Assembly (NCBI GenBank): GCA_009778255.1
Contig: WRKD01000230.1
Location: 1-37,297, forward strand
Length of the DNA: 37,297 nt
Origin: Bacillota bacterium
GTDB lineage: Bacteria; Bacillota; Dehalobacteriia; UBA4068
Direction: 5' to 3'
Position numbers and translations under genes: made by a program
Shown: positions 15,984 through 36,647 of the stretch, piece after piece
How positions within the stretch are numbered: the stretch's first letter is position 1
Layout: each line of letters starts with the position of its first letter
Notes under the pieces: generated by a model
Told to the model about the DNA's origin: nothing
The model's database searches: none
What the model saw: the letters and a program-made list of their open reading frames with translations, nothing else

Positions 15984-16130
15984 AGTGTAATTCACCTCCC
16001 TGAAGTCATTATAACAAAGGCTTTCAGAGCATACAACAGAGTCAAGGCAAGTTGTAAATATGACAATGTAAGACGCAAAAAAAGGACAGTAAGTTGTAGG
16101 CAGCCTACTGTCCTGTAGTGTGTATATTTG

Positions 16131-16562: not shown

Positions 16563-16573
16563 TTTGACACCCC

Positions 16574-20761: not shown

Positions 20762-20997
20762 AACCTATTTAAATATAACTATAGGGCGCCTTAATAATAG
20801 TGCAAAGCAAACAATACGGAATGGAAGGCTTATTATCTGATCAACAATCTGTATTTTGTGAATCGGAGGGGTATTGGTTTTAGAGGCTGTTGATTATCGG
20901 GCAATTATCAACGGGCTAAACAAAACTAAAACGCAGGATAAAACGTGTTATTGCCATATTATCGTATTAATAAAGCAACACTCTTTATAAAGGCGTG

Positions 20998-22590
20998 ATG
21001 GAATATATGTCAGAACAAAGCTCATTATTTCGGAAAGTTTCTTTGGATCGGCTATCCTCACCAGAACAACTTGACCAAAAAATAACGGTTATTTCACCGA
21101 TAGGTTGGGTGGCGATAGTTTCCTTAGCAATTTTGCTTTTTGCCGCAGTAGTTTGGGGTTTTTTAGGTATAGTATCAGATAAAGTAAGCGGCAACGGTAT
21201 ATTAATGTACGGTGATGGGATTGTGAGTATTACTTCTCAAACCAGTGGCCAGATTACCGATGTCTACGTGCAAGAAGGGAGCTATGTAGAAAAGGGGCAG
21301 ATTATTGCCCGTGTTACACAAGACGAGTTAACGCAGCAAATTGAGCAGGTGCAGAAAAGCATTGACGCATTGGATACAGTAAATGTGGAGTCACTTGATT
21401 TTGATATTTACTCTCTTAGCAACGAAGTATACTCTCAATTTGCCCCGTTATTGGGGCAAATTCGTTCTGCTCGTGTTCAGCATGAGGCACAAAGATTGGA
21501 AGCAGAGAAAAACGAGCAGGATATTATTAACCAAAAGGAACAGCAAGCACAGCAAATTAATGCGCTCAGAAGACAGATAGCAATGCTGGAGGGGCAAATA
21601 TTACAATATAATAAGCAGCTTGAAGTAGATTTGGAAAAAGCACAAAAAGAATTGGAAGATGCGGAAATTTTATTCGATTTGGGAGATATCTCCAAAAATC
21701 AACTTGATTCGTCAAGGGATGAAGTATCAAGATTATTGAGAGAAATTGAATTAAGAAGCCACGACATTAATAATGGCGACTTAGGAAATTTTGACAAAGA
21801 GCTCAACAAGCCGAGCTTTGATTCTTCGCTTGTTTCAATGCAGTCGCAGCTTGAGGGTTACCGATTGCAACTGATTCAGGCACAGACAAATAATACACTA
21901 CTTAATGATATTTTTACCGATTACCTTTGGGGAGCATACAACCAGACAGGTGACCAAATCTCCTCACTTATTGAACAGTTTGCCGATCGCAAGCAGGTCA
22001 CATTACAAGATTATCAAGAGCACTTGGAATATCTGCAAACTCAATATTCTAAAAAAACTGCGATAATAGCGGAATTCAGCGGCATTGTGTCAGGACTTAC
22101 GGTTCAGCCATACGATTTAGCACAACCAGGTTTTGTACTTGGCAATATCGTTCGGGGCGATCAGGTAGCTGTTAGTTCCAATGTCAAAATGTATGTACCG
22201 ATGGGTAAAGGCAAACTGGTTGAAGATGGAATGGAGGTAAATATATCACCCACTACAGTTAATAGGGAAGAGCATGGATATATTATCGGGCAGGTTGTGT
22301 CAGTGTCGGCTTCGTATGTTACTCAGGAACATATAATGTCTATTCTGCAAAATCAGCAACTCGTGATGGCTTTTGGCGGAAACTCGGCCGTTATTGAGGT
22401 AGAAGTAGAGCTGCTGCGCGATGACAATACTATAAGCGGTTACAAATGGTCAACTCCAAAAGGAGCGCCTCTCCCTATCAGCCCTGGCACTATCTGCCGG
22501 GGAGAAATAAAAGTATCCGACCGGCGGCCTATTGATATGATCGTTCCGTTTATTAAGAAACTTTTCCAATCAAGCGAGGATTACCAATGA
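20998..22590 (+). CDS. HlyD-family membrane fusion protein, NHLM-bacteriocin-system secretion protein type (TIGR03794-like)
   Basis: N-terminus SLFRKVSLDRLSSPEQLDQ followed by one TM segment. It has a biotinyl/lipoyl-like hairpin (GQITDVYVQEGSYVEKGQIIARV), a long coiled coil and a C-terminal beta-barrel. The ATG at 20998 follows AAAGG. Family call from memory of the model and the adjacent two-ABC architecture. Confidence 0.8.
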   Translation: MEYMSEQSSLFRKVSLDRLSSPEQLDQKITVISPIGWVAIVSLAILLFAAVVWGFLGIVSDKVSGNGILMYGDGIVSITSQTSGQITDVYVQEGSYVEKGQIIARVTQDELTQQIEQVQKSIDALDTVNVESLDFDIYSLSNEVYSQFAPLLGQIRSARVQHEAQRLEAEKNEQDIINQKEQQAQQINALRRQIAMLEGQILQYNKQLEVDLEKAQKELEDAEILFDLGDISKNQLDSSRDEVSRLLREIELRSHDINNGDLGNFDKELNKPSFDSSLVSMQSQLEGYRLQLIQAQTNNTLLNDIFTDYLWGAYNQTGDQISSLIEQFADRKQVTLQDYQEHLEYLQTQYSKKTAIIAEFSGIVSGLTVQPYDLAQPGFVLGNIVRGDQVAVSSNVKMYVPMGKGKLVEDGMEVNISPTTVNREEHGYIIGQVVSVSASYVTQEHIMSILQNQQLVMAFGGNSAVIEVEVELLRDDNTISGYKWSTPKGAPLPISPGTICRGEIKVSDRRPIDMIVPFIKKLFQSSEDYQ

Positions 22591-24803
22591 GTGCAATTTC
22601 TAAAAAAGCACCAAAGCAGGAAGCCCCGCGCATCAATAACAGAGTACGCACACCCAGCATCCTACAAATGGAAATGGTAGAATGCGGTTCAGCTTCTCTT
22701 GCCATGATTTGCGCCTATTATAAAAAATATATACCGCTTGAAGTGTTACGTGTAGAGTGTGGTGTCACAAGGGATGGCGTTAAGGCTGGTAATATGGCAA
22801 GGGCGGCCAAGAAAATAGGCTTTGATGTTAAAGGCTTCCGCAAAGAACCAGCCGATTTAGCCAAGTTGAAGCCCCCTATGATTATCCATTGGAATTTTAA
22901 TCATTTTGTGGTTTTCGAAGGTTTCAAAAACGGCAAGGCATATATCAACGATCCGGCAAGCGGACGGCGGATTCTTTCCTATGAAGAGTTTGACCTGGCG
23001 TTCACCGGAGTAGTCCTAACTTTTGAACTTACAGAAGAGTTCGAGAGAAGCGGACAAAAAAGCACCATGATATCTTCATTGGCAAAACGGCTGCGGGGTG
23101 TGCAAAGCGCAATTGTATTCCTGGTAATTGTGGGGCTGCTGCTGGTTATACCAGGTCTTATTATCCCGGCTTTCTCTCGTATATTCATAGACGATTTGCT
23201 ATTGGCTGGCAGAAGTGAATGGCTAAAGCCTCTGCTTTGGTGCATGGGGGCTACAGCGCTTCTACAAGCCATTCTTACAGGAATTCAACAACGATATCTA
23301 TTGCGCATGGAAACCAAGATTGCTCTAAGTGGCGCCAGCAGCTTTTTTTGGCATATCTTACGGTTACCCATATTATTTTTTCAACAGCGTTCCCCCGGTG
23401 ATATCAGTTCCCGACAGAATTCCAACAATACTGTGGCAGAATTTTTGTCACGGCAACTGGCGGAAAATGTAATTGGTGTTATCACGCTTATATTTTATTT
23501 TATTGTTATGTTGCAATATAATGTGCTGCTTACCATGCTAACCCTAGTGCTGGCGGTTATAAATGTATTGTATTTTATTTATTCTTCCGGGAAAGTTGAG
23601 GATTTAAATAGTAAGCTGAAACAAGATGTGGGAAAGCTAGCCGGGACTTCGGTATCAGGGCTATTCATAATTGAAACCCTTAAAGCCACAGGTTCGGAAT
23701 CCAGCTTTTTTGCAAAATGGGCGGGTTACCACGCCAAGCAGTTAAATTCCCTACAAAAGATGGGCGCCTTTGCCCAGATTTTGTTTACCCTGCCAAACTT
23801 TATGTCCGGGCTTGCCAGCGTAATTGTTTTGTGCGTGGGCGGGATGCAGATTTTGGACGGCAATATGACCGTAGGTACATTGATCGCATATCAAAGCCTT
23901 ATTGTTAATTTTATGCATCCTATTAGCAAACTTACACAGATGGGCATGAAGATAAAACAGCTTAAGGGAGATATGAGCCGCCTTGATGATGTACATAAAT
24001 ATGCTGTGGATAAATTCAGCGACCCCGATCGTGATTTAGCGCTTGAAGCTGTCGGCGAAGCCGATTTCCGCAAGCTGGAGGGCTATGTGGAGATAAAAAA
24101 CTTGAGTTTTGGCTATAATGTGTTGGAACAACCGCTTATCGAAGATTTCAATCTAAGCCTAAAGCCTGGATCCCGCGTGGCATTGGTTGGAGCTTCCGGC
24201 AGCGGTAAGAGTACGGTTGCCAAAATGCTTGCGGGCATTAACCGCCCTTGGGGTGGCGAAATTTTGTTTGATGGCGTAAGCAGGGACGATCTGCCGCGCA
24301 ATGTAATCAGTAACTCTCTGGCAGTAGTGGATCAGGATATCAGCATGTTTGAGGGAACTGTTCAGGACAATATAACCATGTGGGATGAAACAATCAGTGA
24401 TGCGGATATAGTGGGAGGCGCGAAGGACGCTTGCATCCACGATGACATTGCCGCACGCGAGGGTGGGTATAAAAGCACTATCAGGGAAGGCGGCGCAAAT
24501 TTCAGCGGCGGTCAGCGTCAGCGTTTGGAAATTGCCAGGGCTTTAGCTATCAATCCCTCTATTTTAATTCTTGATGAAGCTACCAGCGCGTTAGATGTGC
24601 GTACAGAAAAAATAGTCAATGATAATATCCGCAGGCGGGGTTGTACATGTATTATTGTGGCACATCGTTTAAGCACTATCCGAGACAGCGACGAGATTAT
24701 TGTTATGCATCGCGGTAAAATTGTTCAACGAGGCGCCCACGATGAAATGAAAAATGTTCCCGGTCCTTATGCTGAGCTAATTGAAACGGCGGTGAGTGTG
24801 TGA
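22587..24803 (+). CDS. Peptidase-containing ABC transporter (C39 double-glycine peptidase + TMD + NBD), NHLM ABC1 type (TIGR03796-like)
   Basis: C39 domain with Cys (QMEMVECGSASLAMICAYY), His (HWNFNHFVV) and Asp (INDPASG). Six-TM ABC exporter domain. Walker A GASGSGKST, signature FSGGQRQR, Walker B ILILDEATSALD. The ATG overlaps the upstream stop (ATGA). Confidence 0.9.
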   Translation: MSAISKKAPKQEAPRINNRVRTPSILQMEMVECGSASLAMICAYYKKYIPLEVLRVECGVTRDGVKAGNMARAAKKIGFDVKGFRKEPADLAKLKPPMIIHWNFNHFVVFEGFKNGKAYINDPASGRRILSYEEFDLAFTGVVLTFELTEEFERSGQKSTMISSLAKRLRGVQSAIVFLVIVGLLLVIPGLIIPAFSRIFIDDLLLAGRSEWLKPLLWCMGATALLQAILTGIQQRYLLRMETKIALSGASSFFWHILRLPILFFQQRSPGDISSRQNSNNTVAEFLSRQLAENVIGVITLIFYFIVMLQYNVLLTMLTLVLAVINVLYFIYSSGKVEDLNSKLKQDVGKLAGTSVSGLFIIETLKATGSESSFFAKWAGYHAKQLNSLQKMGAFAQILFTLPNFMSGLASVIVLCVGGMQILDGNMTVGTLIAYQSLIVNFMHPISKLTQMGMKIKQLKGDMSRLDDVHKYAVDKFSDPDRDLALEAVGEADFRKLEGYVEIKNLSFGYNVLEQPLIEDFNLSLKPGSRVALVGASGSGKSTVAKMLAGINRPWGGEILFDGVSRDDLPRNVISNSLAVVDQDISMFEGTVQDNITMWDETISDADIVGGAKDACIHDDIAAREGGYKSTIREGGANFSGGQRQRLEIARALAINPSILILDEATSALDVRTEKIVNDNIRRRGCTCIIVAHRLSTIRDSDEIIVMHRGKIVQRGAHDEMKNVPGPYAELIETAVSV

Positions 24804-27439
24804 TCGCGACTTTACAGAAAAAAGATAATGCCCCCTTTTGGATACATAAGGAAGAAAGCGATGCTTTTTTTGTCTTAGAGGGCACTATTAATATATATCA
24901 TAGCATAATAGGCACTGAGGATCAGCCTACCGGTTCGCGCATTTTCCTTTTTCAAATGCTGGAAGGTGAACTACTTTTTTCTTTAAATCCTTTTGAACGT
25001 GGAGACGGTACCTGCGCAGGATTGCTGGCGGTACCGGCCAGTGATATTGAACTGAATCAAACTCAGATATCTCTATCAGGCAATATGCGTTCTTTTGTAG
25101 AAGAATGGGTTGAAAAATGTTGCTGGCGGCTTGGTTATTCCCGCGAACGGATTGAAGCGGCTTGTCTGGCACTTGACCAAACCGGTATTGAGGGGTTTAA
25201 TGATTCTATCATGCGTCTGCTTGACGAGCAAGTGCAAGAAGAAGCCCGGCAAACAAGAGTTGCTAACCGCCGCCGTTACGCTGGAGAAAATAACTATATG
25301 CAGACCGCTATCAATAACTTACAGTCTGTAGTGCCCAGCGCACAAGAGCAAGGTTCAGTAATTCATACGGAGGACAATCCTTTGATTGCAGCCTGTGCCG
25401 CCGTAGCACAGGAGAACGGCATGGAAATTACAATTCCCAGAGCCATCCGAGAGAAAACGGCCTCCGGCGATGTAGTAGGGGATATCGCATCAGCTTCATG
25501 TTTTAGGACGCGGGAAGTTATACTAAATGGTAAATGGTATCTCCAGGAAGGTGGAAGCTTCCTGGCAAAGCTTGAGGAAAGTGAAGAGCCGGTTGCTCTG
25601 TTACAAAAATCCCCTAAACGATATATTATGTATAATCCCGCCACCAAAGAAAGAACAAAGGTAACAAAAAATAACTATGCCATAATCAACCCAAAGGCCG
25701 TGATGTTCTACCGCAGCCTGCCCGCGCACAGCTTAGGCGGCAAGGATATTATACGCTTTGTGCTAAGAGGCACAGGAAAGACCGACTGGATTTGGATAAT
25801 CGTAATGGGATTATGCGGTGGGCTTCTTGGCATGCTTTCGCCAATCATAACCGGAACAGTCTTTGACACCATTATTCCTGATGGCAACCGTAGCTTGCTT
25901 ATTCAAATAGGGTTCTTAATGGGGGCCATGGCGCTGACTACTTTCGCTTTTGAAATCACCAGGGCTTTCGCCATGCAACGGATATCCGGCGTGGTAGAGC
26001 GAGATTTGCAACCTGCGGTATGGGATAGAATATTAAGCCTGCCGGTAGGCTTTTTTAAAAAATATACTGCCGGTGAACTGATGGAGCGAGCAATGAGCAT
26101 ATCACAAATTCAACAGATACTTTCAGGTGCTGTGGCAAATACTATTATTACCAGCATTTTTTCTGTTTTTTACATTATTGTAATGTTTGTAAAAAGCACC
26201 AGGTTGGCCTGGTACGGTCTGGGGATAGCGGCACTTGCCTTAATTATTTCTCTTTTGCTTGGCTGGCGTCAAATTAAATATGCCAGCAAGCAGATAGATA
26301 TAAATAACAAAATTTCCGGCAGGATGTTCGGCTGGCTTTCCGGGCTGGCAAAAGTTAAAATGTCAGGATCAGAAAAACGTACTTTTTATAATTGGTCAAA
26401 AATGTATAAAGAATCCCGCGAGATCACCTATAAGAAAGGCAGTATCGGCAACTGGTCGGTGGTAAGCAATTCGGTTATTATGTTGATTGCATCAATGATT
26501 ATCTATGCGGTTATGTTTAAGCAAAATGGTATGTTGATCGCCGCCGGCTCATTTATCGCTTTTAATGCGGCCTTGGGGAGTTTAATTCAAGGCGGTGTAC
26601 AGCTTTCACAATCTGTTATAGATGCCAATATTGTGATTCCCCTCTATAAATCAGCTCAACCGATTTTTCAAGCAGTGCCGGAGTATGACGATTTGAAAAG
26701 TGAGGCTCCGCCTTTAACCGGCGAAATTGAACTCAGCCGAATCAATTTTAGCTATGATAAGGGTGGGCCTCAAATCATCAAAGATGTTTCTATACAAATC
26801 CGTAGAGGTGAGCATGTGGCTCTTGTAGGGCCTTCCGGCAGCGGTAAATCCACTTTATTTCGCATCTTAATGGCTTTTGAACAACCGGATAGCGGTGAAA
26901 TTTATTATGATAGAATTAGCCTAAACCAACTAGACATACGTTCAGTACGGCGTCAGCTTGGAGTAGTGTTACAATCCAGTATGCTTATGGCTGGGAGTAT
27001 TTTTGAGAATATCGCCGGCTCTAACCCCAGTATCACGCATGATGATGCCTGGCGGGCGGTTAGGCAGGCAGGTATGGAGGATGACTTGCAGCAAATGCCT
27101 ATGGGTATACACACCATGATTTCTGAAGGCGCCAGTACACTCTCCGGCGGACAGAGACAACGGTTGCTGATTGCACGGGCGCTGGTAGGCAACCCCAAGA
27201 TATTATTTTTTGACGAGGCGACAAGTGCCCTTGATAACAAGACGCAAAAAATTATTAGCGATAGTATTAACCAGCTCAAGGCTACCCGTATTACTATTGC
27301 GCATCGCTTGAGTACCGTACAGGACTGTGACCGCATCATTGTTTTAGAAAGCGGCAGGGTTACAGAAGAAGGCACTTATGCTGAGCTTATAAAGTTAAAC
27401 GGGACTTTTGCAGCAATGGCAAGACGGCAAATGGCATAG
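24800..27439 (+). CDS. Second ABC exporter subunit with cNMP-binding-like N-domain and no peptidase, NHLM ABC2 type (TIGR03797-like)
   Basis: The N-terminus PFWIHKEESDAFFVLEGTINIYH...RIFLFQMLEGELLFSL resembles a cyclic-nucleotide-binding-like beta-roll. A TMD follows, then the NBD (GPSGSGKST, LSGGQRQR, ILFFDEATSALD). The GTG start overlaps the ABC1 stop (GTGTGA). Confidence 0.85.
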   Translation: MIATLQKKDNAPFWIHKEESDAFFVLEGTINIYHSIIGTEDQPTGSRIFLFQMLEGELLFSLNPFERGDGTCAGLLAVPASDIELNQTQISLSGNMRSFVEEWVEKCCWRLGYSRERIEAACLALDQTGIEGFNDSIMRLLDEQVQEEARQTRVANRRRYAGENNYMQTAINNLQSVVPSAQEQGSVIHTEDNPLIAACAAVAQENGMEITIPRAIREKTASGDVVGDIASASCFRTREVILNGKWYLQEGGSFLAKLEESEEPVALLQKSPKRYIMYNPATKERTKVTKNNYAIINPKAVMFYRSLPAHSLGGKDIIRFVLRGTGKTDWIWIIVMGLCGGLLGMLSPIITGTVFDTIIPDGNRSLLIQIGFLMGAMALTTFAFEITRAFAMQRISGVVERDLQPAVWDRILSLPVGFFKKYTAGELMERAMSISQIQQILSGAVANTIITSIFSVFYIIVMFVKSTRLAWYGLGIAALALIISLLLGWRQIKYASKQIDINNKISGRMFGWLSGLAKVKMSGSEKRTFYNWSKMYKESREITYKKGSIGNWSVVSNSVIMLIASMIIYAVMFKQNGMLIAAGSFIAFNAALGSLIQGGVQLSQSVIDANIVIPLYKSAQPIFQAVPEYDDLKSEAPPLTGEIELSRINFSYDKGGPQIIKDVSIQIRRGEHVALVGPSGSGKSTLFRILMAFEQPDSGEIYYDRISLNQLDIRSVRRQLGVVLQSSMLMAGSIFENIAGSNPSITHDDAWRAVRQAGMEDDLQQMPMGIHTMISEGASTLSGGQRQRLLIARALVGNPKILFFDEATSALDNKTQKIISDSINQLKATRITIAHRLSTVQDCDRIIVLESGRVTEEGTYAELIKLNGTFAAMARRQMA

Positions 27440-27464
27440 TAGTATTATATTTTAGGTGGCAGAT

Positions 27465-28427
27465 ATGGAATTAGAGTTTATAGCCGAAAACCGCTTTACC
27501 AAATTTCCTATGGAAGAAAACTTGCAGGAAGAAGTTTTCGCCAGCGACTGGGAGTTACTGCTTAGCCGTCATACCAGGGAACCTTGGGAGATTCTTCGTG
27601 AGATGTTTGTTGAGCTGAGTTTTCCTATCGGAAGCGGCCAGAGTAAAAACCCCGAACTTTTAGTGGCGTTGAAGCGCGGCATACTTCCCTCGTATCCTCA
27701 AGGGGCATGGAAACCTATCGCACCTGCGGGGATTATGGTATATCTTCATCCAACACCGGCAGGCCGTCTTCCGGTTATTGAATGTGAAGCTGACACTGAT
27801 TTTATACGCTTGCTACAAAGCCTTGCCTATCGCTGTGATTCTCGCCCCGTGCCAAAATCCCGAGGGGCAACTATCATCAAAAACTACAATAACTGGGCGA
27901 GAATCAATATGCATCGCAACAGCTCAACAGATGGCATCCCCAAAGACCCGGCACTATACCGAGACTGTATCGCATTGCTCTCCCACCGATATTACAGCGG
28001 TGTAACTCCAGAAGTATTTGGGCTTAAGAGTGATGAATGGCGAAAAAAATCCCTTGTTCTGCGACGCGAGCATGAAGTAGCCCATTACATGACACAACGT
28101 CTTTATCATTCTGCAAAAAATGAGATACATGATGAGATAATTGCGGATTTCATGGGACTTACCGCAGCTTTTGGCGATTATGATCCGGACAAATTCCTCA
28201 CTTTTTTAGGCCTGGAGAATTATCCGGATTATCGCGCGGGCGGCAGATTAGAAATTTATCTGCCTACAAATGATAAAAATTTTAGCTTGCTATGTGAAAT
28301 CCTGCCACAAGCAGCAAAAAACATAGCTGCTTATTATTATAATACAGACGGCGACCGAATAAGAGTATTCCATGCGCTGTGCCGCACCTCAATGGCAGAC
28401 ATAGTAAGGGGGAAACTGCATGAATAA
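27465..28427 (+). CDS. Soluble protein with HExxH motif (putative zinc metallopeptidase-like; family not recognised)
   Basis: REHEVAHYMTQRLYHSAKNEIHDE contains HEVAH plus downstream Glu/His/Asp candidates. No TM segments or signal peptide. The ATG at 27465 follows AGGTGG. The 3' end overlaps the sigma-factor start by 8 nt. Confidence 0.55.
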   Translation: MELEFIAENRFTKFPMEENLQEEVFASDWELLLSRHTREPWEILREMFVELSFPIGSGQSKNPELLVALKRGILPSYPQGAWKPIAPAGIMVYLHPTPAGRLPVIECEADTDFIRLLQSLAYRCDSRPVPKSRGATIIKNYNNWARINMHRNSSTDGIPKDPALYRDCIALLSHRYYSGVTPEVFGLKSDEWRKKSLVLRREHEVAHYMTQRLYHSAKNEIHDEIIADFMGLTAAFGDYDPDKFLTFLGLENYPDYRAGGRLEIYLPTNDKNFSLLCEILPQAAKNIAAYYYNTDGDRIRVFHALCRTSMADIVRGKLHE

Positions 28428-28959
28428 GATTGTTTTGCATCCAGCGTCAATAGAAGTAGAGTTTGAGGAACTGTATAAAAAACAATTTTCCTCCGTTTAC
28501 AACTACATATATTTTCACATAGGTGATGCTATGGATGCGGAAGATTTGACAGCAGATATATTCGTACGCGCTTATAAATATTGGAAAAGTTATTCTAATA
28601 GCAAAGGAAGCCAAGGCGAATGGCTTGGCGGCATTGCCAGAAACACGCTCAAGACTTATTTTAAAATAAAAGCATGTAAACCTCAAGTAAGCCAATTATC
28701 CGAATTTATAGCCGCAGATATTTGTATAGAAGATTGTTATCTACACAAAGAAGAATTGCTGCAAGTATTAGCGCAAATTAAGGCGTTACCAGAACTCCAA
28801 CGGGAACTTTTGAGCATGAAATACCTGTTGCGTCTTACAAATAGGGAAATCGCAAAGACTACTGGGATGAGCGAGAGTAATGTAGGTGTGGTACTACACA
28901 GGTCAATTAAAAAAATACAAAAAAACAGCAAGAATACATTATATAAATATTATGAATAA
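28420..28959 (+). CDS. ECF-type sigma-70 family RNA polymerase sigma factor
   Basis: 179 aa with only regions 2 and 4: FEELYKKQFSSVYNYIYFHIGDAMDAEDLTADIFVRAYKYW and WLGGIARNTLKTYF for region 2, LPELQRELLSMKYLLRLTNREIAKTTGMSESNVGVVLHRSIKKI for region 4. Confidence 0.85.
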   Translation: MNKIVLHPASIEVEFEELYKKQFSSVYNYIYFHIGDAMDAEDLTADIFVRAYKYWKSYSNSKGSQGEWLGGIARNTLKTYFKIKACKPQVSQLSEFIAADICIEDCYLHKEELLQVLAQIKALPELQRELLSMKYLLRLTNREIAKTTGMSESNVGVVLHRSIKKIQKNSKNTLYKYYE

Positions 28960-28976
28960 ATATGGGAGTGGTGATA

Positions 28977-29276
28977 ATGCTTATCAACAAAATACAGGAA
29001 AACGGAAAACTTATTCTCGCCCTTGATGGTAAATTAGACACAAACACCTCATCGCAGCTTCAGCAAGTATTAATTCTCGCATTTGATGATGTAAAAGAAA
29101 TTGTACTGGATTTTAAGAATCTGGCCTATACATCGTCGGCAGGATTGCGTGTTCTGTTGCTGGGGCAGAAAACGGCAATAGCTAAAAAAGCATCCATGAC
29201 GCTTTGCAATGTTTCGGAAGAGATTATGGAAGTGTTTGATATGACCGGTTTTTCTGACATGCTGACCATTTTGTAA
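28977..29276 (+). CDS. STAS-domain anti-sigma-factor antagonist (SpoIIAA/RsbV-like), copy 1
   Basis: LILALDGKLDTNTSSQLQQ...LDFKNLAYTSSAGLRVLL...MTLCNVSEEIMEVFDMTGFSDML. It has the conserved phosphorylatable Ser context (SSAG). The ATG at 28977 lies 8 nt after GGAG. It is a 99-aa paralogue of the 35627..35926 product. Confidence 0.85.
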   Translation: MLINKIQENGKLILALDGKLDTNTSSQLQQVLILAFDDVKEIVLDFKNLAYTSSAGLRVLLLGQKTAIAKKASMTLCNVSEEIMEVFDMTGFSDMLTIL

Positions 29277-29295
29277 TTTGGAGGGTTGAGAGAAT

Positions 29296-32200
29296 ATGCG
29301 CAGCTTATCAAAATCTCAGAAAAACATATATTTGAATGATCTTAGTGGTGCAAAATTACCGGTAAACACACTACATACAACATTACAGTTTTTGGAAAAA
29401 ACTGATGATCTGCTACTTGAAAAAGCTGTGAACTTTGTTATATTAAACAATGATATTTTTAAAATACGAATTATTGATCAAGGCGGCGAACCGTTTCAAG
29501 ATTTTTGCGCTGAAATAAAAGAATGCAACATTGATAGCACTCTTTATTCCGATGAAGAGCTTTCTGTAATTTTTTTACAAAGAAAGACCCAGAAGTTTGA
29601 TGTTTATAAAACACTTTATGATTTCACGCTTTACCGAAAAAAAAATGGACTATGTGTGTTAAGTATAGTCACTCATCATATAATCGTTGACGGCTATGGC
29701 ATGGGGGTTCTTTGCGATGATATCCTGAGGGTTTACTGTTTATTACTTGAAGGAAGGATCCTAGTGGCCGAAACCTTGCCTTTTGCGGATTCTTTGCAAG
29801 TTACTGAAATAGATTATGAAGAAAACAAAGCCTTCTGGAACAGATATTTTGATGGTTTTGATATTGGCGGCAAACCTTTTGCCACTAAAAACGATTCTTT
29901 AATTGCTTCCGTTTTTAAGGGAGCAATAGAAAGCACCACCATCATGAAGTATTGCGCAAAGCATTCTCTTACTCCATATACCGTTTTTACAGCAGCATTA
30001 GGAATATACTTGATGAATATCTACGGGACAGACGAAACAGTTGTGATAATCCCGCGCATGAACAGAAGCCTGAATGAACGAAAAACAATCGGTTGTTTTG
30101 TGCTGCCCGTTCCTATAAGATTTAAAAAAACTGACAGTTTTGCGGCTTTATGTGAGCAGATCAGTCGTGAAGGCAAGGTTGTTAGCGCTCATAAAAAATA
30201 TGATTTCAGCCAAATAATTGAGGATTTTAAAAGAAAATTCAACACCGAAAGTCCAATTTCTGAGTTTACACTAAATTTTCAACTGAAAGACACCATAAGT
30301 AAAATCAAAACAAAAATGAATTTTAGCGCTTGCGGCGCTATGCGCAATCTTATAACGTTGAATATCAGCAATTATGAAGGTGATAATGTTTATGATATAA
30401 CCTATGACTACCGTAGTGATATATTAGATGAAAAGTATATGGCCTTCTTTCATAACGCATTGAAATGGATTATTAAACAGGGTGTATCCGGAACGCCTGT
30501 TAGCAAAATCAAAATTATACCAGATGCGGAGCTTGAGTATCTTAAAAACGAATTTAGAGGAGAAACGGTTTATTATAACAATCATGAAACCATTATCTCG
30601 CTATTCGAAAAAACAGTGAGTACAACGCCTTATGCCCCCGCTGTTTTTACCCGTGATAGAGAAGTACCTTTGACTTTTTCCGAATTAGACAATCTTTCCC
30701 ATAAAATCGCTGTTTCCTTACGAAAGAAAGGTGCGGAAAAAGGATCGCTTGTTGGCTTTTTGCTTGAAAGAAATTACACCCTTCTACCCACAATTCTTGG
30801 AATACTTAAGGCGGGTTGCGGATTTTTGCCCCTTGATATTAATTACCCCAAAGGGAGAATTGATTATATAATAAGCGACAGTAAAGCAAAATTTATTATT
30901 TCCGCCCCAAAGATAGCGCAAAAATTCGCAATCGATTATATTGATGTAAATGAGCTTTTGCTCGGAGGAATAAATGGATCCGTTCATGTAAAAGTAAATC
31001 AAGATGATTTGGCATATTGCATTTACACATCAGGAACAACCGGCCAGCCGAAAGGAGCTTTACTTGCCCATAAGGGCATAGTAAATATCACTCATCCCCT
31101 AAACAACCCATTCAACAAAGCTGTATGCGCAGTTGGTACAGGTATTGTCGCGATTGGTTCAATATGCTTCGACATATCTCTTTTTGAAATTTTAGTGTTT
31201 TTGCTGAACGGTAAGTTTGTGGCTATTGCTAATGATGATGAACTTGCAAATGGTGAAGCAATTGCGGAATTATTTTATAAAACGGGCGCAAACGCGCTCC
31301 ATTGCACACCCTCAAGGTTGCATAATTACCTTTTAGGCAGTTTATTTACGGATGTTTTAAAAACACAAATTAAGATAATTCTTTCTGCAGGCGAGGTACT
31401 GCCTTCTCATCTTGCCGCTATGATAATTGATTATAATATAAAAATATACAATGGCTACGGCCCCACAGAAACTACTATAGGCGCAACCATTACTGAAGCG
31501 GGTGATCGCGAAACCATTGGAAAGCCCATAGCCAACACGGCTGTTTATATAGTGGATGCAAAAAAAACGCTCCTGCCATTCGGTGTTACAGGTGAAATTG
31601 CTATAGCAGGTGATGGCGTTGGGCTTGGGTATATGGGAAATGATAAGCTTACAGCAGAAAAATTTACTGTAATAAACAACGAAAGGGTATATCTTACCGG
31701 AGATTTAGGACATTTTACCTCTGATGGGCAGCTTAAATATATGACAAGAAACGACAGCCAGGTGAAATTACGTGGATATAGAATAGAACTTGCTGAAATT
31801 GAACAATGCGCGCTGCAATGCCAAGGCGTTGAGAATTGCGCAGTGATTATGAAGAAAATAAACGACATAAATTATTTGATATTATATTATAGCGGTATAG
31901 AAGCAGTAAGCGAAAAACTTAAGGAGCATCTTAGAAAGTTTTTATCCTATTATATGGTGCCTCAAGTGGTCGTAAGATTGTCTTTTTTACCGACTAATAT
32001 CAATGGTAAAACTGACCGCGCGGCTTTGCTAAAGCTCTCTGTAGCGATGAAAAATGAATATGCGCCTCCATCTACAAAAGAAGAGAAGATACTTTGTAAA
32101 GCCTTTGAAATAGCGCTTTCTTTACCGAGAGTAGGGATAAATGACAATTTTTTTGAAATCGGCGGTACCTCCTTGTCGGCGGTAAAAATGATGATGTATG

Positions 32201-33483
32201 CCAACAAGTACGATCTTAGTGTAGAGTATTCAACTATATTTAAGTATCCTACACCGCATTTACTTGCAGAAAATATGCTAGAAAGCAAGATTCAAAATTA
32301 TTTATTACCGTTGGTTACCGCCAATGAAAAGGAATTTGAAAAAATAGACGAGCTCCTACAACAAAAACATAATGAGAATTTTTCGATCTCAGCTCTTTGC
32401 AATGTACTGGTTACGGGTGCAACAGGGTTTTTGGGGAGTCATATAATAAAATATCTTTTAGGCGATAGCTGCACAGGTAAAATATACTGCCTTGTGCGGG
32501 CTAAAGGAAAACTTACTCCGGAAAAACGATTGAAAACAACCCTTTTTTATTACTTTAATGATTTTTTTGAGGAACAATTTGCCAGAAAAATAAAGGTTAT
32601 TGGGGGAGATATGAGCCAAGATAACCTTTTTGCAAGCATTCCGTATGAAATAAACACCGCAATAAATTGCGCGGCCAATGTTGCCCATTTTGCCTATGGA
32701 GACGCACTGGAGTCGGTGAATATAAAAGCGGTGGAAAACTTGATCGATTTTTGCACAATAAAAAATGCTGAGCTTATCCATATCTCTACCATAAGCGTGG
32801 CAGGTCATACAATAAAGGACAATATTAATGACACTGTATATTCGGAACATGACTTATACAAAGGCCAGATCATTTCCAACGAATATATCTACAGTAAATT
32901 CGCTGCTGAATTTCTGGTGCTAAAAGCCAAGACAAAGGGGCTGAAAGTAAAAGTTATTCGGGTGGGTAACTTGCAGGGGAGAATGGACGACGGAGAATTT
33001 CAAATAAATTTGCAAAAAAACGCTTTTATGCGGAGTATTAAAGCATATGCAGCAATTGGAGGAGCGCCCGACGCCTTCAAAAATAATTCGGTAAACATTA
33101 CGCCGGTTGATGAAGCGGCAAAAGCCATACTATTACTTTCCGGGCTTCCCAACTGCTTCACGGTTTTTCATGTAATGAATGCCGTACCCGTTTCATACGA
33201 TCAGATATTTTTCATGTTTTCTACAATCGGAAAAGAAATCCACTATATGAAAAATGAGGAATTTGAAGAACTTATAGACCAACTCTACAAAGATAACGCT
33301 CAAAGTAGAAAAGTAGAAGGGCTGTTTCTTGAAAAAAGCGACATTCGGCTAAGAGAAATACCTATAAAGTCTGACTTTACGGTCAGAACTTTAAAAAATC
33401 TAAATTTCCAATTTAAGACAATAGAAAAAGACTACATAGAGAAATATTTATGCATGTTAAATGGTTTGGGTTTTTTCGATTAG
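29296..33483 (+). CDS. Single-module nonribosomal peptide synthetase, C-A-T-R (condensation, adenylation, thiolation, terminal reductase)
   Basis: C domain: LSKSQKNIYLND and HHIIVDGYG (HHxxxDG). A domain: LAYCIYTSGTTGQPKG, FDIS, NGYGPTETT, GEIAIAGDGVGLGYMG, YLTGDLG, LRGYRIELAEIE, NGKTDR. T domain: FFEIGGTSLSAV. R domain: VLVTGATGFLGSHI and YIYSK (YxxxK). My hand alignment to GrsA-PheA from memory gives a tentative specificity code D-I-F-H-L-A-G-I-G-K, which I cannot assign to a substrate. Confidence 0.9.
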   Translation: MRSLSKSQKNIYLNDLSGAKLPVNTLHTTLQFLEKTDDLLLEKAVNFVILNNDIFKIRIIDQGGEPFQDFCAEIKECNIDSTLYSDEELSVIFLQRKTQKFDVYKTLYDFTLYRKKNGLCVLSIVTHHIIVDGYGMGVLCDDILRVYCLLLEGRILVAETLPFADSLQVTEIDYEENKAFWNRYFDGFDIGGKPFATKNDSLIASVFKGAIESTTIMKYCAKHSLTPYTVFTAALGIYLMNIYGTDETVVIIPRMNRSLNERKTIGCFVLPVPIRFKKTDSFAALCEQISREGKVVSAHKKYDFSQIIEDFKRKFNTESPISEFTLNFQLKDTISKIKTKMNFSACGAMRNLITLNISNYEGDNVYDITYDYRSDILDEKYMAFFHNALKWIIKQGVSGTPVSKIKIIPDAELEYLKNEFRGETVYYNNHETIISLFEKTVSTTPYAPAVFTRDREVPLTFSELDNLSHKIAVSLRKKGAEKGSLVGFLLERNYTLLPTILGILKAGCGFLPLDINYPKGRIDYIISDSKAKFIISAPKIAQKFAIDYIDVNELLLGGINGSVHVKVNQDDLAYCIYTSGTTGQPKGALLAHKGIVNITHPLNNPFNKAVCAVGTGIVAIGSICFDISLFEILVFLLNGKFVAIANDDELANGEAIAELFYKTGANALHCTPSRLHNYLLGSLFTDVLKTQIKIILSAGEVLPSHLAAMIIDYNIKIYNGYGPTETTIGATITEAGDRETIGKPIANTAVYIVDAKKTLLPFGVTGEIAIAGDGVGLGYMGNDKLTAEKFTVINNERVYLTGDLGHFTSDGQLKYMTRNDSQVKLRGYRIELAEIEQCALQCQGVENCAVIMKKINDINYLILYYSGIEAVSEKLKEHLRKFLSYYMVPQVVVRLSFLPTNINGKTDRAALLKLSVAMKNEYAPPSTKEEKILCKAFEIALSLPRVGINDNFFEIGGTSLSAVKMMMYANKYDLSVEYSTIFKYPTPHLLAENMLESKIQNYLLPLVTANEKEFEKIDELLQQKHNENFSISALCNVLVTGATGFLGSHIIKYLLGDSCTGKIYCLVRAKGKLTPEKRLKTTLFYYFNDFFEEQFARKIKVIGGDMSQDNLFASIPYEINTAINCAANVAHFAYGDALESVNIKAVENLIDFCTIKNAELIHISTISVAGHTIKDNINDTVYSEHDLYKGQIISNEYIYSKFAAEFLVLKAKTKGLKVKVIRVGNLQGRMDDGEFQINLQKNAFMRSIKAYAAIGGAPDAFKNNSVNITPVDEAAKAILLLSGLPNCFTVFHVMNAVPVSYDQIFFMFSTIGKEIHYMKNEEFEELIDQLYKDNAQSRKVEGLFLEKSDIRLREIPIKSDFTVRTLKNLNFQFKTIEKDYIEKYLCMLNGLGFFD

Positions 33484-33576
33484 TCATGCAGCAAGTATTC
33501 TCACAAACATAGAGCAAAAGACACAGCGCACTTTAGGTTTTATCCTGTTTAATGCCCTTGGCAGAAAGGAATTTTT

Positions 33577-35085
33577 ATGAAAATCAGCTTGGATATTGTT
33601 TTTATTTGGACATTCGCGGTTTCTTTATCCGGCGTAATGTCTGCGCTTATTTGCGGCATAACTTTAAAAAGTAGATATACGAAATCAGTTGCCTTTTGGG
33701 GATATGCGCTTGCTTTTATTATCGGTTTTTTAATATCGTTTCTGCTGTATAATTCTAATATTTCGAACGATTTTGGCGGAATCGTTGTAATGTCTGTTTT
33801 AATCTGGATAGCCTGCCTGATAGTGAGTGCGGGGCATTGGTCATCAAAGTGGTTTGTCGCGATAATGGCAACACTCATTTCCAATGTATCGACTTTTTTT
33901 ATCTGCGGCCCAACCCTTAGTTTTATTGACGAAACGACAAACCCATATAATATTATAACCATTTCAATTTTTATTGGACTAAAAATAGTTTTATTTACAA
34001 TATTATTTGTCTTATATAAAATTAAGCTGAGGGAAAAGGTGCATAAGGTTATTGATGCTTTGAGCGGTAAAATGAGCAGTTATTTGCCTGTTGCGATCGT
34101 ATCATTTTTTGGATTCTATATAATCAATGTTATCACAAATAATATGGGAATAATCCCTTCCGCCATAACTATAGGTCAAATTAATCAAATAATAACCCTG
34201 CCGGATAGCTTGGAGCTCCGCTATATTTTTATTGCTCTTTACGGCGTCATAAGTCTTATTTTCATTCTGGAGTTCTGGCAAATGTTCGCTTCCGTTTTTT
34301 GGTCCTCACGCGCTCATAAAACAGAAGCTGAGTTAAACATTGCTAATAAAATTCAGCAGGACATGCTGCCCTGCATTTTCCCCGCATTCCCGGATCGCGC
34401 CGATTTTGATATATATGCCAGTATGCAGCCTGTGAAAGAAGTTGGCGGTGATTTTTATGATTTCTTCCTAGTTAATGACAATACACTTGCTGTGGTTATT
34501 GCCGATGTCTCTGATAAAGGCATACCCGCCGCGCTGTTTATGGTTATTACCAAAACCCTCATAAAAAACACCTCCCTTTCCGGCAAAAGCCCCAAGGAAG
34601 TTTTTGAAACCGTTAATAATATGCTTTGCGAAAATAATGAAGCCGGTATGTTTGTTACAGCATTTTTGGGTTTTCTTGATATTATCAGTGGAAAATTCAC
34701 TTATGTCAACGCAGGGCACAACTTACCGTTGCTGCGCTCCGGTAGTACCAATTCTACAAACAGGCGCTTTGACTGGTTGAAGGCCAAGCCTGGTTTTGTG
34801 CTGGCCGGTATGGAAGATATGTTTTATAAGCAAGAGGAAATTATTTTAAGGCCAGGGGACGAATTATTCTTATATACTGACGGTGTGACCGAGGCTGCAA
34901 ACCGCGAAAGCAAGTTATTTGGCTCCCCTCGTCTGATTGAAACGGCGAATGAGTATCTTGATTTGCCATTAAAGGAATTTACAATATCTATAAAACGAAA
35001 AATAGAAGAATTCGCTAATGGCGCCGAGCAGGCGGATGACATTACCATGCTTGCTTTACGGTATAAAGGGAAAGGCACGAGTTGA
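33577..35085 (+). CDS. Membrane-anchored PP2C/SpoIIE-family serine phosphatase (RsbU/SpoIIE-like) with multi-TM N-terminal domain
   Basis: The N-terminal ~250 aa are hydrophobic, with roughly 7-8 TM segments. The PPM domain has EVGGDFYDF, VIADVSDKGIPAALFM, NAGHN, LFLYTDGVTEA and ADDITMLAL. AAAGGA lies 6 nt upstream of the ATG. Confidence 0.85.
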   Translation: MKISLDIVFIWTFAVSLSGVMSALICGITLKSRYTKSVAFWGYALAFIIGFLISFLLYNSNISNDFGGIVVMSVLIWIACLIVSAGHWSSKWFVAIMATLISNVSTFFICGPTLSFIDETTNPYNIITISIFIGLKIVLFTILFVLYKIKLREKVHKVIDALSGKMSSYLPVAIVSFFGFYIINVITNNMGIIPSAITIGQINQIITLPDSLELRYIFIALYGVISLIFILEFWQMFASVFWSSRAHKTEAELNIANKIQQDMLPCIFPAFPDRADFDIYASMQPVKEVGGDFYDFFLVNDNTLAVVIADVSDKGIPAALFMVITKTLIKNTSLSGKSPKEVFETVNNMLCENNEAGMFVTAFLGFLDIISGKFTYVNAGHNLPLLRSGSTNSTNRRFDWLKAKPGFVLAGMEDMFYKQEEIILRPGDELFLYTDGVTEAANRESKLFGSPRLIETANEYLDLPLKEFTISIKRKIEEFANGAEQADDITMLALRYKGKGTS

Positions 35086-35097
35086 TAAGTAATTATT

Positions 35098-35577
35098 CTA
35101 CGCAACTTTTTTTTTAATCAGCAATATATTTTTATTATCCTCATAGCGATACTTTATGGCGTCTGCTATACTCTTTACCAAAAGAATACCTAATCCGCCA
35201 ACCTCCCGTTTTTCCGCGTCCAGTGTTATATCGGGGTCGTCTTTTTCAAGTGGGTTATAGGGTTTACCGCAGTCCTCGAATTCGATAATAACTTCATCAC
35301 CGACAGCTATACGAATTGCTACATTTCCAGCTGCTGTAGAAGGTTGTTCTCTTGGCAAACTGCTTGCCCAGGTATCTTCGCTATATGCATAATACACAAT
35401 ATTAACAAATATTTCTTCCACAACAAGAGCAAGTTGTGTTTGCAACTTCGCGGTGCAATTGCAGGCTGCCAATTCCCCAGTAATGAAATCCTTTACGGCA
35501 TCTAGGTTTTCTATTTTAGCTGTGGTTACAAACTCTTTTAAATTAATAAGGTTGTTTATATCCTTATTTTTTGGCAT
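35098..35577 (-). CDS. Anti-sigma-factor-type serine kinase (HATPase_c; RsbW/SpoIIAB-like)
   Basis: LALVVEEIFVNIVYYAY (N-box region), FEDCGKPYNP and GGLGILLVKSIADAIKY (G-boxes). The ATG at 35577 lies 9 nt after AAGGAG. The tracked longer start would overlap the STAS gene. Confidence 0.8.
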   Translation of the reverse strand: MPKNKDINNLINLKEFVTTAKIENLDAVKDFITGELAACNCTAKLQTQLALVVEEIFVNIVYYAYSEDTWASSLPREQPSTAAGNVAIRIAVGDEVIIEFEDCGKPYNPLEKDDPDITLDAEKREVGGLGILLVKSIADAIKYRYEDNKNILLIKKKVA

Positions 35578-35626
35578 AACATAAAACTCCTTATTACTAT
35601 TGCTGCCCAACTGTTGACTGGTATGA

Positions 35627-35926
35627 TCATTCAAAATTCAATACACTGGAAAACCCGGTTATTTCGAACACTTCCATAATATCTGGTGATACATTTACAA
35701 GAGTTTGCCGGCTGCCTTTTGTTTTTGCTGCTTTCTCACCCATAAGTAATATGCGTAGCCCTGCCGATGAAACAAAAATAAGCTTAGCGAAATCAAGCTC
35801 AATATGCTCTGCATTGCTGATTTCGGGGAGAAGAATTTCCTGTAATTTAGGGGATGTGGTAGTATCTAGCCTGCCAGATAAGACAATTGTTGTTTTTTCT
35901 TCATTGTGGATTACATTAATATTCAA
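35627..35926 (-). CDS. STAS-domain anti-sigma-factor antagonist (SpoIIAA/RsbV-like), copy 2
   Basis: TIVLSGRLDTTTSPKLQE...LDFAKLIFVSSAGLRILL...QTLVNVSPDIMEVFEITGFSSVL. The TTG start follows AGGAGAGGA by 5 nt. It lies directly upstream of the RsbW-like kinase gene. Confidence 0.85.
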   Translation of the reverse strand: MNINVIHNEEKTTIVLSGRLDTTTSPKLQEILLPEISNAEHIELDFAKLIFVSSAGLRILLMGEKAAKTKGSRQTLVNVSPDIMEVFEITGFSSVLNFE

Positions 35927-36017: not shown

Positions 36018-36236
36018 CTACTTGTTTTTCTGAAATTCCTCCGATTTATCGCAGTGTTCCGTGGTGCTAGCCAGACCGCCGCCTACTTTATCAAACTTTT
36101 CTATAGATAGCGTGTCAGATGGCGTATCGGCATTTCGAGACAGGCGCACCAAAATTTTCTCCCAAACAGCCTTCTCGCGCCCTGCGGAAAAATCAATGGC
36201 ATTAAATAATTTTTCTATTTCAAAAAACTTATTCAT
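36018..36236 (-). CDS. 72-aa peptide with double-glycine-type leader motif (candidate PCAT substrate / RiPP-like precursor or signal peptide)
   Basis: MNKFFEIEKLFNAIDFSAGREKAVWEKILVRLSRNADTPSDTLSIEKFDKVGGG|LASTTEHCDKSEEFQKNK. LSIEKFDKVGGG places hydrophobic residues at -12, -7 and -4 relative to GG, as in double-glycine leaders. GAGGA lies 7 nt upstream of the ATG. It is the first gene of the minus-strand operon. Function is inferred, not demonstrated. Confidence 0.55.
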   Translation of the reverse strand: MNKFFEIEKLFNAIDFSAGREKAVWEKILVRLSRNADTPSDTLSIEKFDKVGGGLASTTEHCDKSEEFQKNK

Positions 36237-36647
36237 AGTTTTTCCTCGTTCTTTTGTTTCGGAGGATAATATAAATGCCCAATAAAGTCCTTAACAGAAA
36301 ACTTTAGAGTAGTTCCTGCAAAAAACTCTTTCTAGCTATAACTACATTCTTTTTTGAAGAGTATTACATGGTATTCCCACATTTGTTTTATTTATAATTA
36401 TGAGCATTGGCATTTGCTATCTCTAAATCAAATGTATCTCCGTTTTTTGATACAACAATATTACCATACCTGTTTATGATTAGCAAATTTATTCGGAACG
36501 ATTTCAGCCATTTATTTTCTAAAAAAGTAATATGTAATACTTTCAAACAAAGTGAGTAGTTATTAATGTTAAGCGGATAAATATGTTTATCCAAGGCAAG
36601 CAGAACAGTATACCACGTACAACCATCGTAAGTACCGGAGGTGATAA

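Follow-up and report, generated by a model that had tools for sequence, protein, structure and literature searches.

An ECF sigma factor encoded with partner-switching proteins in a peptide-export cluster of an uncultured Clostridia bacterium

The DNA analysed here (hereafter the window) is an entire contig of 37.3 kb (WRKD01000230.1, 37,297 nucleotides) from the metagenome-assembled genome (2.2 Mb, 90.7% complete) of an uncultured gut-type Clostridia bacterium. A string of genes on its plus strand (20072-35085) encodes, in this order, a 4'-phosphopantetheinyl transferase (PPTase), an NHLM-type exporter triad, a DUF7005 protein, a sigma factor of the extracytoplasmic function (ECF) type, a STAS protein (STAS1), a single-module nonribosomal peptide synthetase (NRPS) and a membrane-bound serine phosphatase of the SpoIIE/PP2C type. 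A three-gene operon of the minus strand, encoding a 72-residue protein (s72), a second STAS protein (STAS2) and an RsbW/SpoIIAB-like serine kinase, converges on the phosphatase gene (Table 1). The cluster for NHLM-type peptide export and the NRPS thus includes a regulator of its own, the ECF sigma factor, and the system combines components of known kinds: an ECF sigma factor, three partner-switch enzymes and an NHLM exporter. Based on the gene content and its conservation, the partner-switching proteins may set the activity of the sigma factor, presumably through binding of the kinase to it, and we give this reading a chance a little short of even. A preliminary description of the locus, made from the sequence alone, had named the same genes; its layout is corrected here in that the kinase and STAS2 genes lie on the minus strand, in an operon headed by the s72 gene.

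The sigma factor and the partner-switching proteins

The sigma factor (179 residues) displays a region 2 (Sigma70_r2, residues 24-82) and a region 4 (Sigma70_r4_2, residues 114-168), and Pfam finds neither a region 3 nor a region 1.1, as previously described. It scores 77.8 bits against the sigma70-ECF model TIGR02937 (cut-off 42.9) and reaches no NCBIfam equivalog, the top match being TIGR02952 (BldN family) with 102 bits versus a cut-off of 206. It belongs to a tight family of approximately 37 proteins sharing 45-100% identity, beyond which scores fall to generic ECF sigma factors. The preliminary description had also seen no adjacent membrane anti-sigma factor, and this was borne out: according to Pfam and to the hydropathy of the neighbours, no class I anti-sigma factor (with an anti-sigma domain (ASD) or zf-HC2) and no small protein with a transmembrane (TM) segment accompanies the sigma gene, and the downstream gene is that of STAS1. 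By hydropathy, DUF7005, the sigma factor, STAS1, STAS2, the kinase and s72 are all non-membrane proteins. The sigma factor inventory of the genome comprises RpoD, FliA/WhiG, SigH, two SigI-like and four ECF factors; no SigB, SigF or SigG was found in this 90.7%-complete assembly, in which FliA/WhiG is the sole group-3 sigma factor.

The two STAS proteins, both above the cut-off of TIGR00377, are identical at 47 of 99 positions and share the SSAGLR(V/I)LL context, in agreement with their earlier designation as paralogues of 99 residues. For STAS1 this length is only obtained from the ATG at 28977, to which its start is corrected here; the earliest ATG (28962) would give 104 residues, and the homologues have 99. 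The second serine of SSAG aligns with the phosphorylated serine in the DSSG of SpoIIAA (1TH8_B; alignment made with STAS2), and this serine is kept in all homologues. The kinase is the sole match to HATPase_c_2 above cut-off in the genome. A search of the PDB with the single kinase sequence (phmmer) returned nothing, and the profile of its family alone reached solved relatives, the best being RsbW (6M36, 7e-7) and SpoIIAB; the family retains the N, G1 and G2 boxes (E..N, DxG, GGLG). The phosphatase matches SpoIIE with 160 bits over 191 of the 192 profile positions, and the motifs GGDFYD, DVSDKG, YTDG and DDIT are visible in its translation. Neither the STAS proteins nor the phosphatase have paralogues elsewhere in the genome, and the phosphatase, the two STAS proteins and the kinase form the only such set that it encodes, with all genes intact.

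Seven hydrophobic segments lie ahead of the SpoIIE domain. This 7-TM part of the phosphatase (245 residues, 33577-34311) corresponds to no Pfam family and is very rare, with just 26 relatives in a set of 1.84 billion cluster representatives. Of the 18 that were scanned with Pfam, six carry a SpoIIE domain, six a GGDEF domain and one a HisKA-HATPase-REC combination (hybrid histidine kinase). Since it is fused to these different outputs, the 7-TM part is probably a modular sensor or input domain and a candidate for the signal input of the system, the role that had been proposed for the membrane domain. The phosphatases of related loci (designated below by L numbers) carry other sensors, namely CHASE2 in L087 and dCache-HAMP in L170 and L171.

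Table 1. Features of the window, followed by the genes of the approximately 100-residue protein s100 in four related loci (coordinates of the respective locus).
Feature	Position	Strand	Basis or remark
4'-phosphopantetheinyl transferase (PPTase)	20072..20761	+	Pfam ACPS, AASDHPPT_N; NCBIfam AusB-like below cut-off; opens plus-strand string
NHLM-type HlyD-family secretion adaptor	20995..22590	+	TIGR03794, 298 bits (cut-off 156)
NHLM exporter subunit 1, C39 peptidase/permease/ATPase	22587..24803	+	TIGR03796, 1060 bits (cut-off 853); Pfam Peptidase_C39
NHLM exporter subunit 2, permease/ATPase	24800..27439	+	TIGR03797, 852 bits (cut-off 709), residues 192-878
DUF7005 HExxH protein	27456..28427	+	PF22541, 259 bits; stop overlaps sigma start by 8 nt
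ECF-type sigma factor	28420..28959	+	Pfam Sigma70_r2, Sigma70_r4_2; TIGR02937 above cut-off
STAS1, anti-sigma-antagonist-type	28977..29276	+	Pfam STAS; TIGR00377, 69 bits (cut-off 53)
Single-module NRPS, C-A-T-R (condensation-adenylation-thiolation-reductase)	29296..33483	+	Pfam Condensation, AMP-binding, PP-binding, NAD_binding_4
7-TM sensor and SpoIIE/PP2C serine phosphatase	33577..35085	+	SpoIIE, 160 bits, residues 301-496
RsbW/SpoIIAB-like serine kinase, candidate anti-sigma factor	35098..35577	-	HATPase_c_2, 62.9 bits
STAS2	35627..35926	-	Pfam STAS, STAS_2
s72, 72-residue soluble protein heading the STAS2-kinase operon	36018..36236	-	Homologues in the same place in related loci
Promoter-like site facing s72-STAS2-kinase	36336..36371	-	Position weight matrix, 36.8 bits
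Divergent promoter-like site 2, oriented towards the amidohydrolase gene	36530..36565	+	Position weight matrix, 29.9 bits
M20-family amidohydrolase, truncated by contig end	36648..37295	+	TIGR01891, 218 bits (cut-off 154)
s100 gene, L192	11549..11845		
s100 gene, L194	11188..11430		
s100 gene, L196	7605..7919		
s100 gene, L199	10001..10297		

Conservation of the linkage and a clade-specific promoter-like motif

We scanned 23 related loci with hidden Markov models (HMMs) built from the proteins of the window. In every one of them the sigma gene lies directly behind the second ABC transporter gene (ABC2) or the DUF7005 gene, and both the phosphatase and the kinase are present in nine of the ten loci that reach far enough past the sigma gene (the window, L001, L002, L004, L005, L085, L086, L087 and L102). 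In the exception, L088, 11 tandem precursor genes fill the contig up to its end. The same HMMs detected no kinase or PP2C in any of 144 loci of the nearest ECF sigma factors outside the clade (1.45 Mb). In these control loci a co-directional open reading frame follows the sigma gene in 120 of 130 cases, and 77 of those 120 encode a TM segment, as is typical of genes for membrane anti-sigma factors. The linkage of the ECF sigma factor to switch genes, on which the preliminary description was built, is thus a conserved one; since the arrangement of the window recurs in related loci, it is not due to chance, and no other set of switch genes of this kind is present in the genome, which is devoid of SigB and SigF. 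A more distant sigma factor (127 bits to the clade HMM) is encoded in L171 beside a dCache-PP2C phosphatase, a kinase and a STAS protein, with no NHLM exporter, and represents a second, independent case of an ECF sigma factor with a switch.

Two architectures can be distinguished within the clade. L001, L004 and L005 display the order HlyD-ABC1-ABC2-DUF7005-sigma-PP2C-STAS-kinase on a single strand and have no NRPS gene, and the arrangement of the window, with STAS1 and the NRPS between the sigma factor and the phosphatase, recurs in L002, L085 and L086. STAS1 is present in all seven NRPS-type loci. Because the phosphatase gene directly follows the sigma gene in L001, L004 and L005, STAS1 and the NRPS represent an insertion common to these seven loci. 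In a tree of the STAS proteins STAS1 stands in its own clade, and STAS2 groups with the single STAS protein of L001, L004 and L005, of which it is, judging from this tree, the orthologue. The switch module is branched, as had been suggested, with STAS1 and STAS2 in separate clades and STAS1 travelling with the NRPS insertion. A recent duplication as the origin of STAS1 and STAS2 was considered and is rejected by the same tree. The contig of L005 belongs to a metagenome-assembled genome labelled Prevotellaceae, and carries a Clostridia-type cluster whose proteins are 54-85% identical to those of the window; this labelling probably reflects a binning error or a transfer.

The clade is also characterized by a promoter-like motif, TGTAATAC-N15-GTAGTTAT, which we found by eye upstream of s72 and precursor genes across the loci, and from 17 sites of which a position weight matrix was built (consensus aaCCnTGTAATACwTTtc...aGGTAgTTAT, i.e. 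GTrATAC-N15-GTA). The matrix finds 19 intergenic sites in the loci of the clade (23-37 bits) and none of at least 17 bits in the control loci, which amount to 2.9 Mb over the two strands. When the 2.2 Mb of the window's genome are scanned, just two sites exceed 19 bits (36.8 and 29.9, the next best reaching 18), and both lie in the intergenic region 36237-36647 as a divergent pair approximately 165 bp apart. The one facing s72 consists of a -35-like TGTAATAC (36361-36368) and a -10-like GTAGTTAT (36338-36345) separated by a spacer of 15 nt. The other lies approximately 85 nt upstream of the M20 amidohydrolase gene, which is therefore a predicted member of the sigma regulon. In 12 further loci the motif likewise stands ahead of an s72 gene or of precursor genes. 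The kinase gene is located downstream of a motif site, and on its strand, in the window, L002, L085, L087 and L102, and the same holds for the phosphatase genes of L087 and L102; no motif site was found ahead of the exporter-sigma string. From this co-occurrence we infer that the motif is the promoter of this sigma factor, and the kinase gene is thereby predicted to lie in its regulon. Generic scans for sigma-70 promoters and terminators gave results near the shuffled expectation and picked no useful site.

Candidate partners of the sigma factor

The partner-switching proteins of the window could act on the sigma factor as follows. The kinase would hold the sigma factor inactive and phosphorylate the STAS proteins. 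Perception of a signal by the 7-TM domain would activate the PP2C domain of the phosphatase, dephosphorylated STAS protein would bind the kinase, and the sigma factor would be freed and transcribe s72-STAS2-kinase, as a feedback, together with the amidohydrolase operon. STAS1 would be co-produced with the sigma factor and STAS2 with the kinase, which would result in two antagonist pools.

Several points weigh against this proposal. SpoIIAB and RsbW classically bind group-3 sigma factors having a region 3, which is absent from the sigma factor of the window. On the 10-kb contig of L087, kinase and phosphatase genes occur without a STAS gene. The kinase is one of hundreds of proteins (50-60% identity) of a broad clade, whose contexts are not always sigma-linked (within the taxonomic order of the window, flanks of 1.5 kb were considered for the kinase homologues), and a locus of Treponema primitia, L170, has STAS, PP2C and kinase genes and no sigma gene. 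The motif is assigned to the sigma factor by co-occurrence, and for the training sites the scores involve a circularity, since these same sites trained the matrix; the positions of the sites and their absence elsewhere are independent of this. The only described locus that we found to combine an ECF sigma factor with a switch is the btr locus of Bordetella, where secretion, and not the sigma factor, is the target of the switch (PMC7498569). Finally, the sigma factor has another candidate partner, which occupies the canonical position of an anti-sigma factor.

This other candidate is s72 together with a related family of proteins of approximately 100 residues, s100. In s72, the N-terminal part is conserved and is followed by the double-glycine motif LSIEKFDKVGGG and by a hydrophilic tail of 18 residues. 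Homologues are encoded in the same position in L002, L085, L086, L087, L099 and L102, and the sigma gene of L006 is followed by an s72-like one; in L087 a short homologue (s62) directly precedes the kinase gene. The N-terminal part of the family reads EIEKxLxxIDFSxGREKAVWEKI, the hydrophilic tail has 11-19 residues, and the double-glycine motif is of the same style as that of the co-located Nif11-like precursors. The relatives came to light through DUF7005, found in 7 of 401 genomes of the other families of the phylum, which led to a deeper clade (G129, G307, G078, G207 and a Desulfoscipio-like contig) with the gene order exporter-[DUF7005]-sigma-s100-[DUF7005]-Nif11 precursors-tailoring genes. 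In all five deeper-clade loci the s100 gene directly follows the exporter-linked sigma gene. s100 ends with ELEDDELDMVAGG and a conserved short tail (VNLNxxxDEKxKK), and the family counts approximately 50 members from Clostridia, Desulfotomaculia and Syntrophomonadaceae, all annotated as hypothetical and without Pfam domain. Between s100 and the precursor genes stands GTGATAC-N15-GTATAA, with the architecture of the promoter-like motif described above, recognized by eye only, as the matrix does not score the deeper-clade sites.

The profile of s72 matches that of s100 over the C-terminal two thirds of the latter (hhalign, 94.9%, E 4e-8), although much of this signal comes from the double-glycine segment that all such leader peptides share, and s72 is without the N-terminal 40 or so residues of s100. 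Judging from this alignment, s72 is a shortened relative of s100. No kinase homologue was found at E ≤1e-5 in the four s100-type genomes, nor in G395, which holds DUF7005 fragments only; the kinase-bearing loci have the short s72 or, as in L001, L004 and L005, neither s72 nor s100. The distributions of full-length s100 and kinase are thus complementary, and because s100 directly follows the sigma gene in these kinase-less relatives, the sigma family has an older candidate partner. In a tree of the sigma factors the clade of the window (support 0.94) and that of the s100-type sigma factors (0.996) are each monophyletic, and the deep nodes do not place them as sisters, so that their common origin rests on synteny, the motif and the s72/s100 relation.

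These observations raise the possibility that s72 and s100 are the real, anti-sigma-like partners, cleaved or removed by the C39 exporter, and that the switch tunes s72, for instance at the serine of DFSxG. The activity of the sigma factor would then be coupled to that of the exporter, following the logic of FlgM and BtrA. Besides the position of the s100 gene and that of the s72-like gene of L006, this fits the double-glycine motif, the placement of s62 before the kinase gene in a locus without STAS gene, and the fact that s72 is the sole double-glycine substrate found in the window's genome; the serine is kept in 9 of 10 s72-type sequences, though variable at the aligned position of s100. 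An AlphaFold2 model of s100 is all-helical, with six helices and a predicted local distance difference test score (pLDDT) of 74, but its comparison with the PDB (Foldseek) gave only matches with E >2, with no anti-sigma domain among them, a result that neither supports nor excludes an anti-sigma fold. As L001, L004 and L005 combine the sigma factor and the full switch with neither s72 nor s100, s72 cannot be a universal anti-sigma factor of the clade. Moreover, peptidase-containing ABC transporters (PCAT exporters) cleave after the double glycine and export the C-terminal part, so that the helical part would stay in the cell. Given in addition how much of the resemblance between s72 and s100 lies in the leader segment, we regard this explanation as rather doubtful.

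Alternatively, the switch might act on no sigma factor at all, the unphosphorylated STAS protein acting on the exporter or on biosynthesis and the sigma factor being controlled separately. Precedents for an output through a STAS protein are BtrV in Bordetella secretion, SypA, and MlaB, which acts on an ABC ATPase. Consistent with this, the switch genes always occur with transporter genes (NHLM in the clade, and a MatE-like protein of 572 residues in L169 and L171), and in L170 they occur without sigma gene. In Bordetella BtrU, BtrV and BtrW control secretion and not BtrS (PMC7498569), RbaW showed no interaction with a sigma factor, and an output of the switch through the STAS protein has been suggested for RbaV (PMC3999984). 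Yet the switch genes stand directly behind the sigma gene in L001, L004 and L005, the kinase gene falls in the predicted sigma regulon, and kinase and full-length s100 replace each other across the loci. The exporter does not need the switch either, since the deeper clade has the same exporter without it. An action away from any sigma factor is on these grounds unlikely.

The preliminary description had named, as possible cognate anti-sigma factors that would leave the switch to another target, the 72-residue protein and the adjacent HExxH protein. The former has gained weight through its relative in anti-sigma position in kinase-less genomes, and the latter has lost it. The HExxH protein, DUF7005, is 62-83% identical across loci, and thus more conserved than the sigma factor itself, with an invariant HExxH...NEIHDE; the 8-nt overlap with the sigma start is conserved in nine loci, and in the deeper clade its gene adjoins that of the sigma factor or of s100. 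An anti-sigma factor or activating protease translationally coupled to the sigma factor could be imagined from this, but DUF7005 is absent from six loci of the window clade (L006, L087, L096, L098, L100 and L102), in which the sigma gene directly follows ABC2, and its position varies, before or after sigma-s100. The invariant HExxH with the downstream glutamate points to an enzyme, for which the cutting of leader peptides or of s100 would be a likelier task than the sequestration of a sigma factor. We therefore consider a direct control of the sigma factor by DUF7005 highly improbable. Judging from its motif and distribution, DUF7005 is probably a metallopeptidase that forms an optional part of the system. 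As an obligate anti-sigma factor it is rejected, being absent from six loci of the clade. An AlphaFold2 model of DUF7005 (alignment of nine sequences) was unusable, with a mean pLDDT of 49, and no paper on the family was found.

Partner switching and the s100 partner might also belong to one history. The conserved core would consist of the exporter, the ECF sigma factor, the small double-glycine protein and motif promoters before peptide genes; the clade of the window would have gained a phosphatase with a 7-TM or other sensor, STAS proteins and the RsbW-like kinase, while the small protein shrank or vanished, s72 being a shortened descendant of an older double-glycine partner of about 100 residues. 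As s72 is a shortened relative of s100, and the s100 genomes are without kinase, we think that an older, exporter-linked partner of the sigma factor has been either supplemented or supplanted by the switch. A combined scheme, in which the double-glycine partner s100/s72 is cleaved or removed by the C39 exporter, so that export capacity sets sigma activity, and in which the kinase, the two STAS proteins and the 7-TM PP2C phosphatase took over the sequestration in the window clade, seems improbable as a whole. The non-canonical partner switch put forward at the outset thus stands in part: the linkage to the sigma factor is conserved, and the older candidate partner complicates its interpretation.

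Relation to known systems and neighbouring genes

Partner switching by RsbW-type kinases is the textbook control of sigma factors of the SigB and SigF type, and ECF sigma factors are the textbook clients of ASD-type anti-sigma factors. The locus of the window resembles the RsbU/V/W-SigB and SpoIIE/SpoIIAA/SpoIIAB-SigF systems of Bacillus in its PP2C phosphatase, its single-domain STAS proteins with a phospho-serine and its GHKL kinase with N, G1 and G2 boxes. As with the internal, sigB-dependent promoter of rsbV-rsbW, the genes of a STAS protein and of the kinase follow a promoter whose activity probably requires the sigma factor that is regulated. In contrast to the Bacillus switches, the sigma factor is of the ECF type without region 3, in a genome without SigB or SigF, the phosphatase carries a rare 7-TM sensor, two STAS paralogues are encoded in different operons, and the operon of STAS2 and the kinase is headed by a double-glycine protein and lies inside a peptide-export and NRPS cluster.

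With the Bordetella btr locus the window shares an ECF sigma factor, a PP2C phosphatase, a STAS protein and a kinase encoded with a secretion system, and possibly, going by the candidate s72/s100, a small sigma partner that leaves via the co-encoded secretion system. The likeness is one of gene content, the secretion system being of type III in Bordetella and a C39-peptidase ABC exporter here. This precedent is weaker than the preliminary description had it, as BtrU, BtrV and BtrW act on secretion and BtrA is the anti-sigma factor (PMC7498569). The main text of the re-classification of ECF sigma factors does not mention STAS, RsbW or PP2C regulators (PMC7826278), and in the literature searched we found neither a paper combining partner switching, an ECF sigma factor and double-glycine bacteriocin export nor a description of the regulatory layer of NHLP/Nif11 export systems.

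Two further kinds of regulation of peptide clusters can be compared. PlnABCD, BlpC/H/R and ComCDE are three-component peptide-pheromone systems that regulate class II bacteriocins and competence. They share with the window a gene for a small double-glycine peptide immediately ahead of the regulators, presumed processing by a C39 exporter and a polytopic membrane sensor. Unlike in these systems, PP2C, STAS, kinase and ECF sigma factor take the place of histidine kinase and response regulator as sensor and output. Moreover, s72 shows an unusual degree of conservation in its N-terminal part, and the tail is conserved among its deeper relatives. In lantibiotic clusters of actinomycetes, pairs of the MibX/MibW type associate an ECF sigma factor, the pathway-specific activator, with a membrane anti-sigma factor. 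The window likewise has an ECF sigma factor encoded in a peptide-antibiotic cluster, but has no membrane anti-sigma factor, in place of which stand a soluble double-glycine protein and/or the RsbW-like kinase.

A conserved meeting of RsbW-type switching and an ECF sigma factor would widen both paradigms. If the proposed control holds true, the kinase would be the first RsbW-type anti-sigma factor acting on an ECF sigma factor, and the path from the 7-TM PP2C phosphatase to the ECF sigma factor would be a new sensor-to-promoter route by which silent peptide and NRPS clusters could be turned on in uncultured gut anaerobes. Control through s100/s72, if real, would represent the principle of FlgM and BtrA moved to a bacteriocin exporter, and an exporter-linked sigma partner would be a new feedback principle for clusters of ribosomally synthesized and post-translationally modified peptides. 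The predicted promoter and the small sigma factor could also serve as an orthogonal expression pair.

All three subunits of the NHLM exporter exceed the curated cut-offs of TIGR03794, TIGR03796 and TIGR03797. Subunit 2 has an N-terminal extension of approximately 190 residues outside the TIGR03797 model and without Pfam match (24800-25370), which looks by eye like a beta-barrel of the cNMP-binding kind (FFVLEGTINIY). The exporter triad is that of NHLP/Nif11 export systems, and in related loci genes for Nif11-like precursors with a double glycine are found together with radical-SAM, YcaO or LanM genes. Unlike these systems, the window's genome has no Nif11/NHLP-type precursor (search of the whole genome with a precursor HMM), and the cluster carries an NRPS, a PPTase, the ECF sigma factor and a phospho-switch. 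The PPTase and the C-A-T-R synthetase in the exporter operon point to a product of the N-acyl amino aldehyde or alcohol type.

NHLP/Nif11 precursor genes are present in L087, L088, L096, L004 and L199. The precursors of the related loci display Nif11-like leaders, a double-glycine site and hydrophobic cores rich in Gly, Ala and Val, almost all of which end in Trp (RRW, LRW, ISW, IKW; L088 4667-9312, L087 2258-3545, L004 13074-13349). In L087, a ParE/RelB toxin-antitoxin pair (1516-2092) lies between the sigma gene and the precursor genes. On the minus strand of the window (14215-17008), genes encoding a LytTR DNA-binding protein without receiver domain, a membrane protein of the DUF3021 family and an ABC-2 exporter resembling DrrA/DrrB adjoin one another; they seem to constitute a small module of their own, for resistance or sensing, with no relation to the sigma factor.

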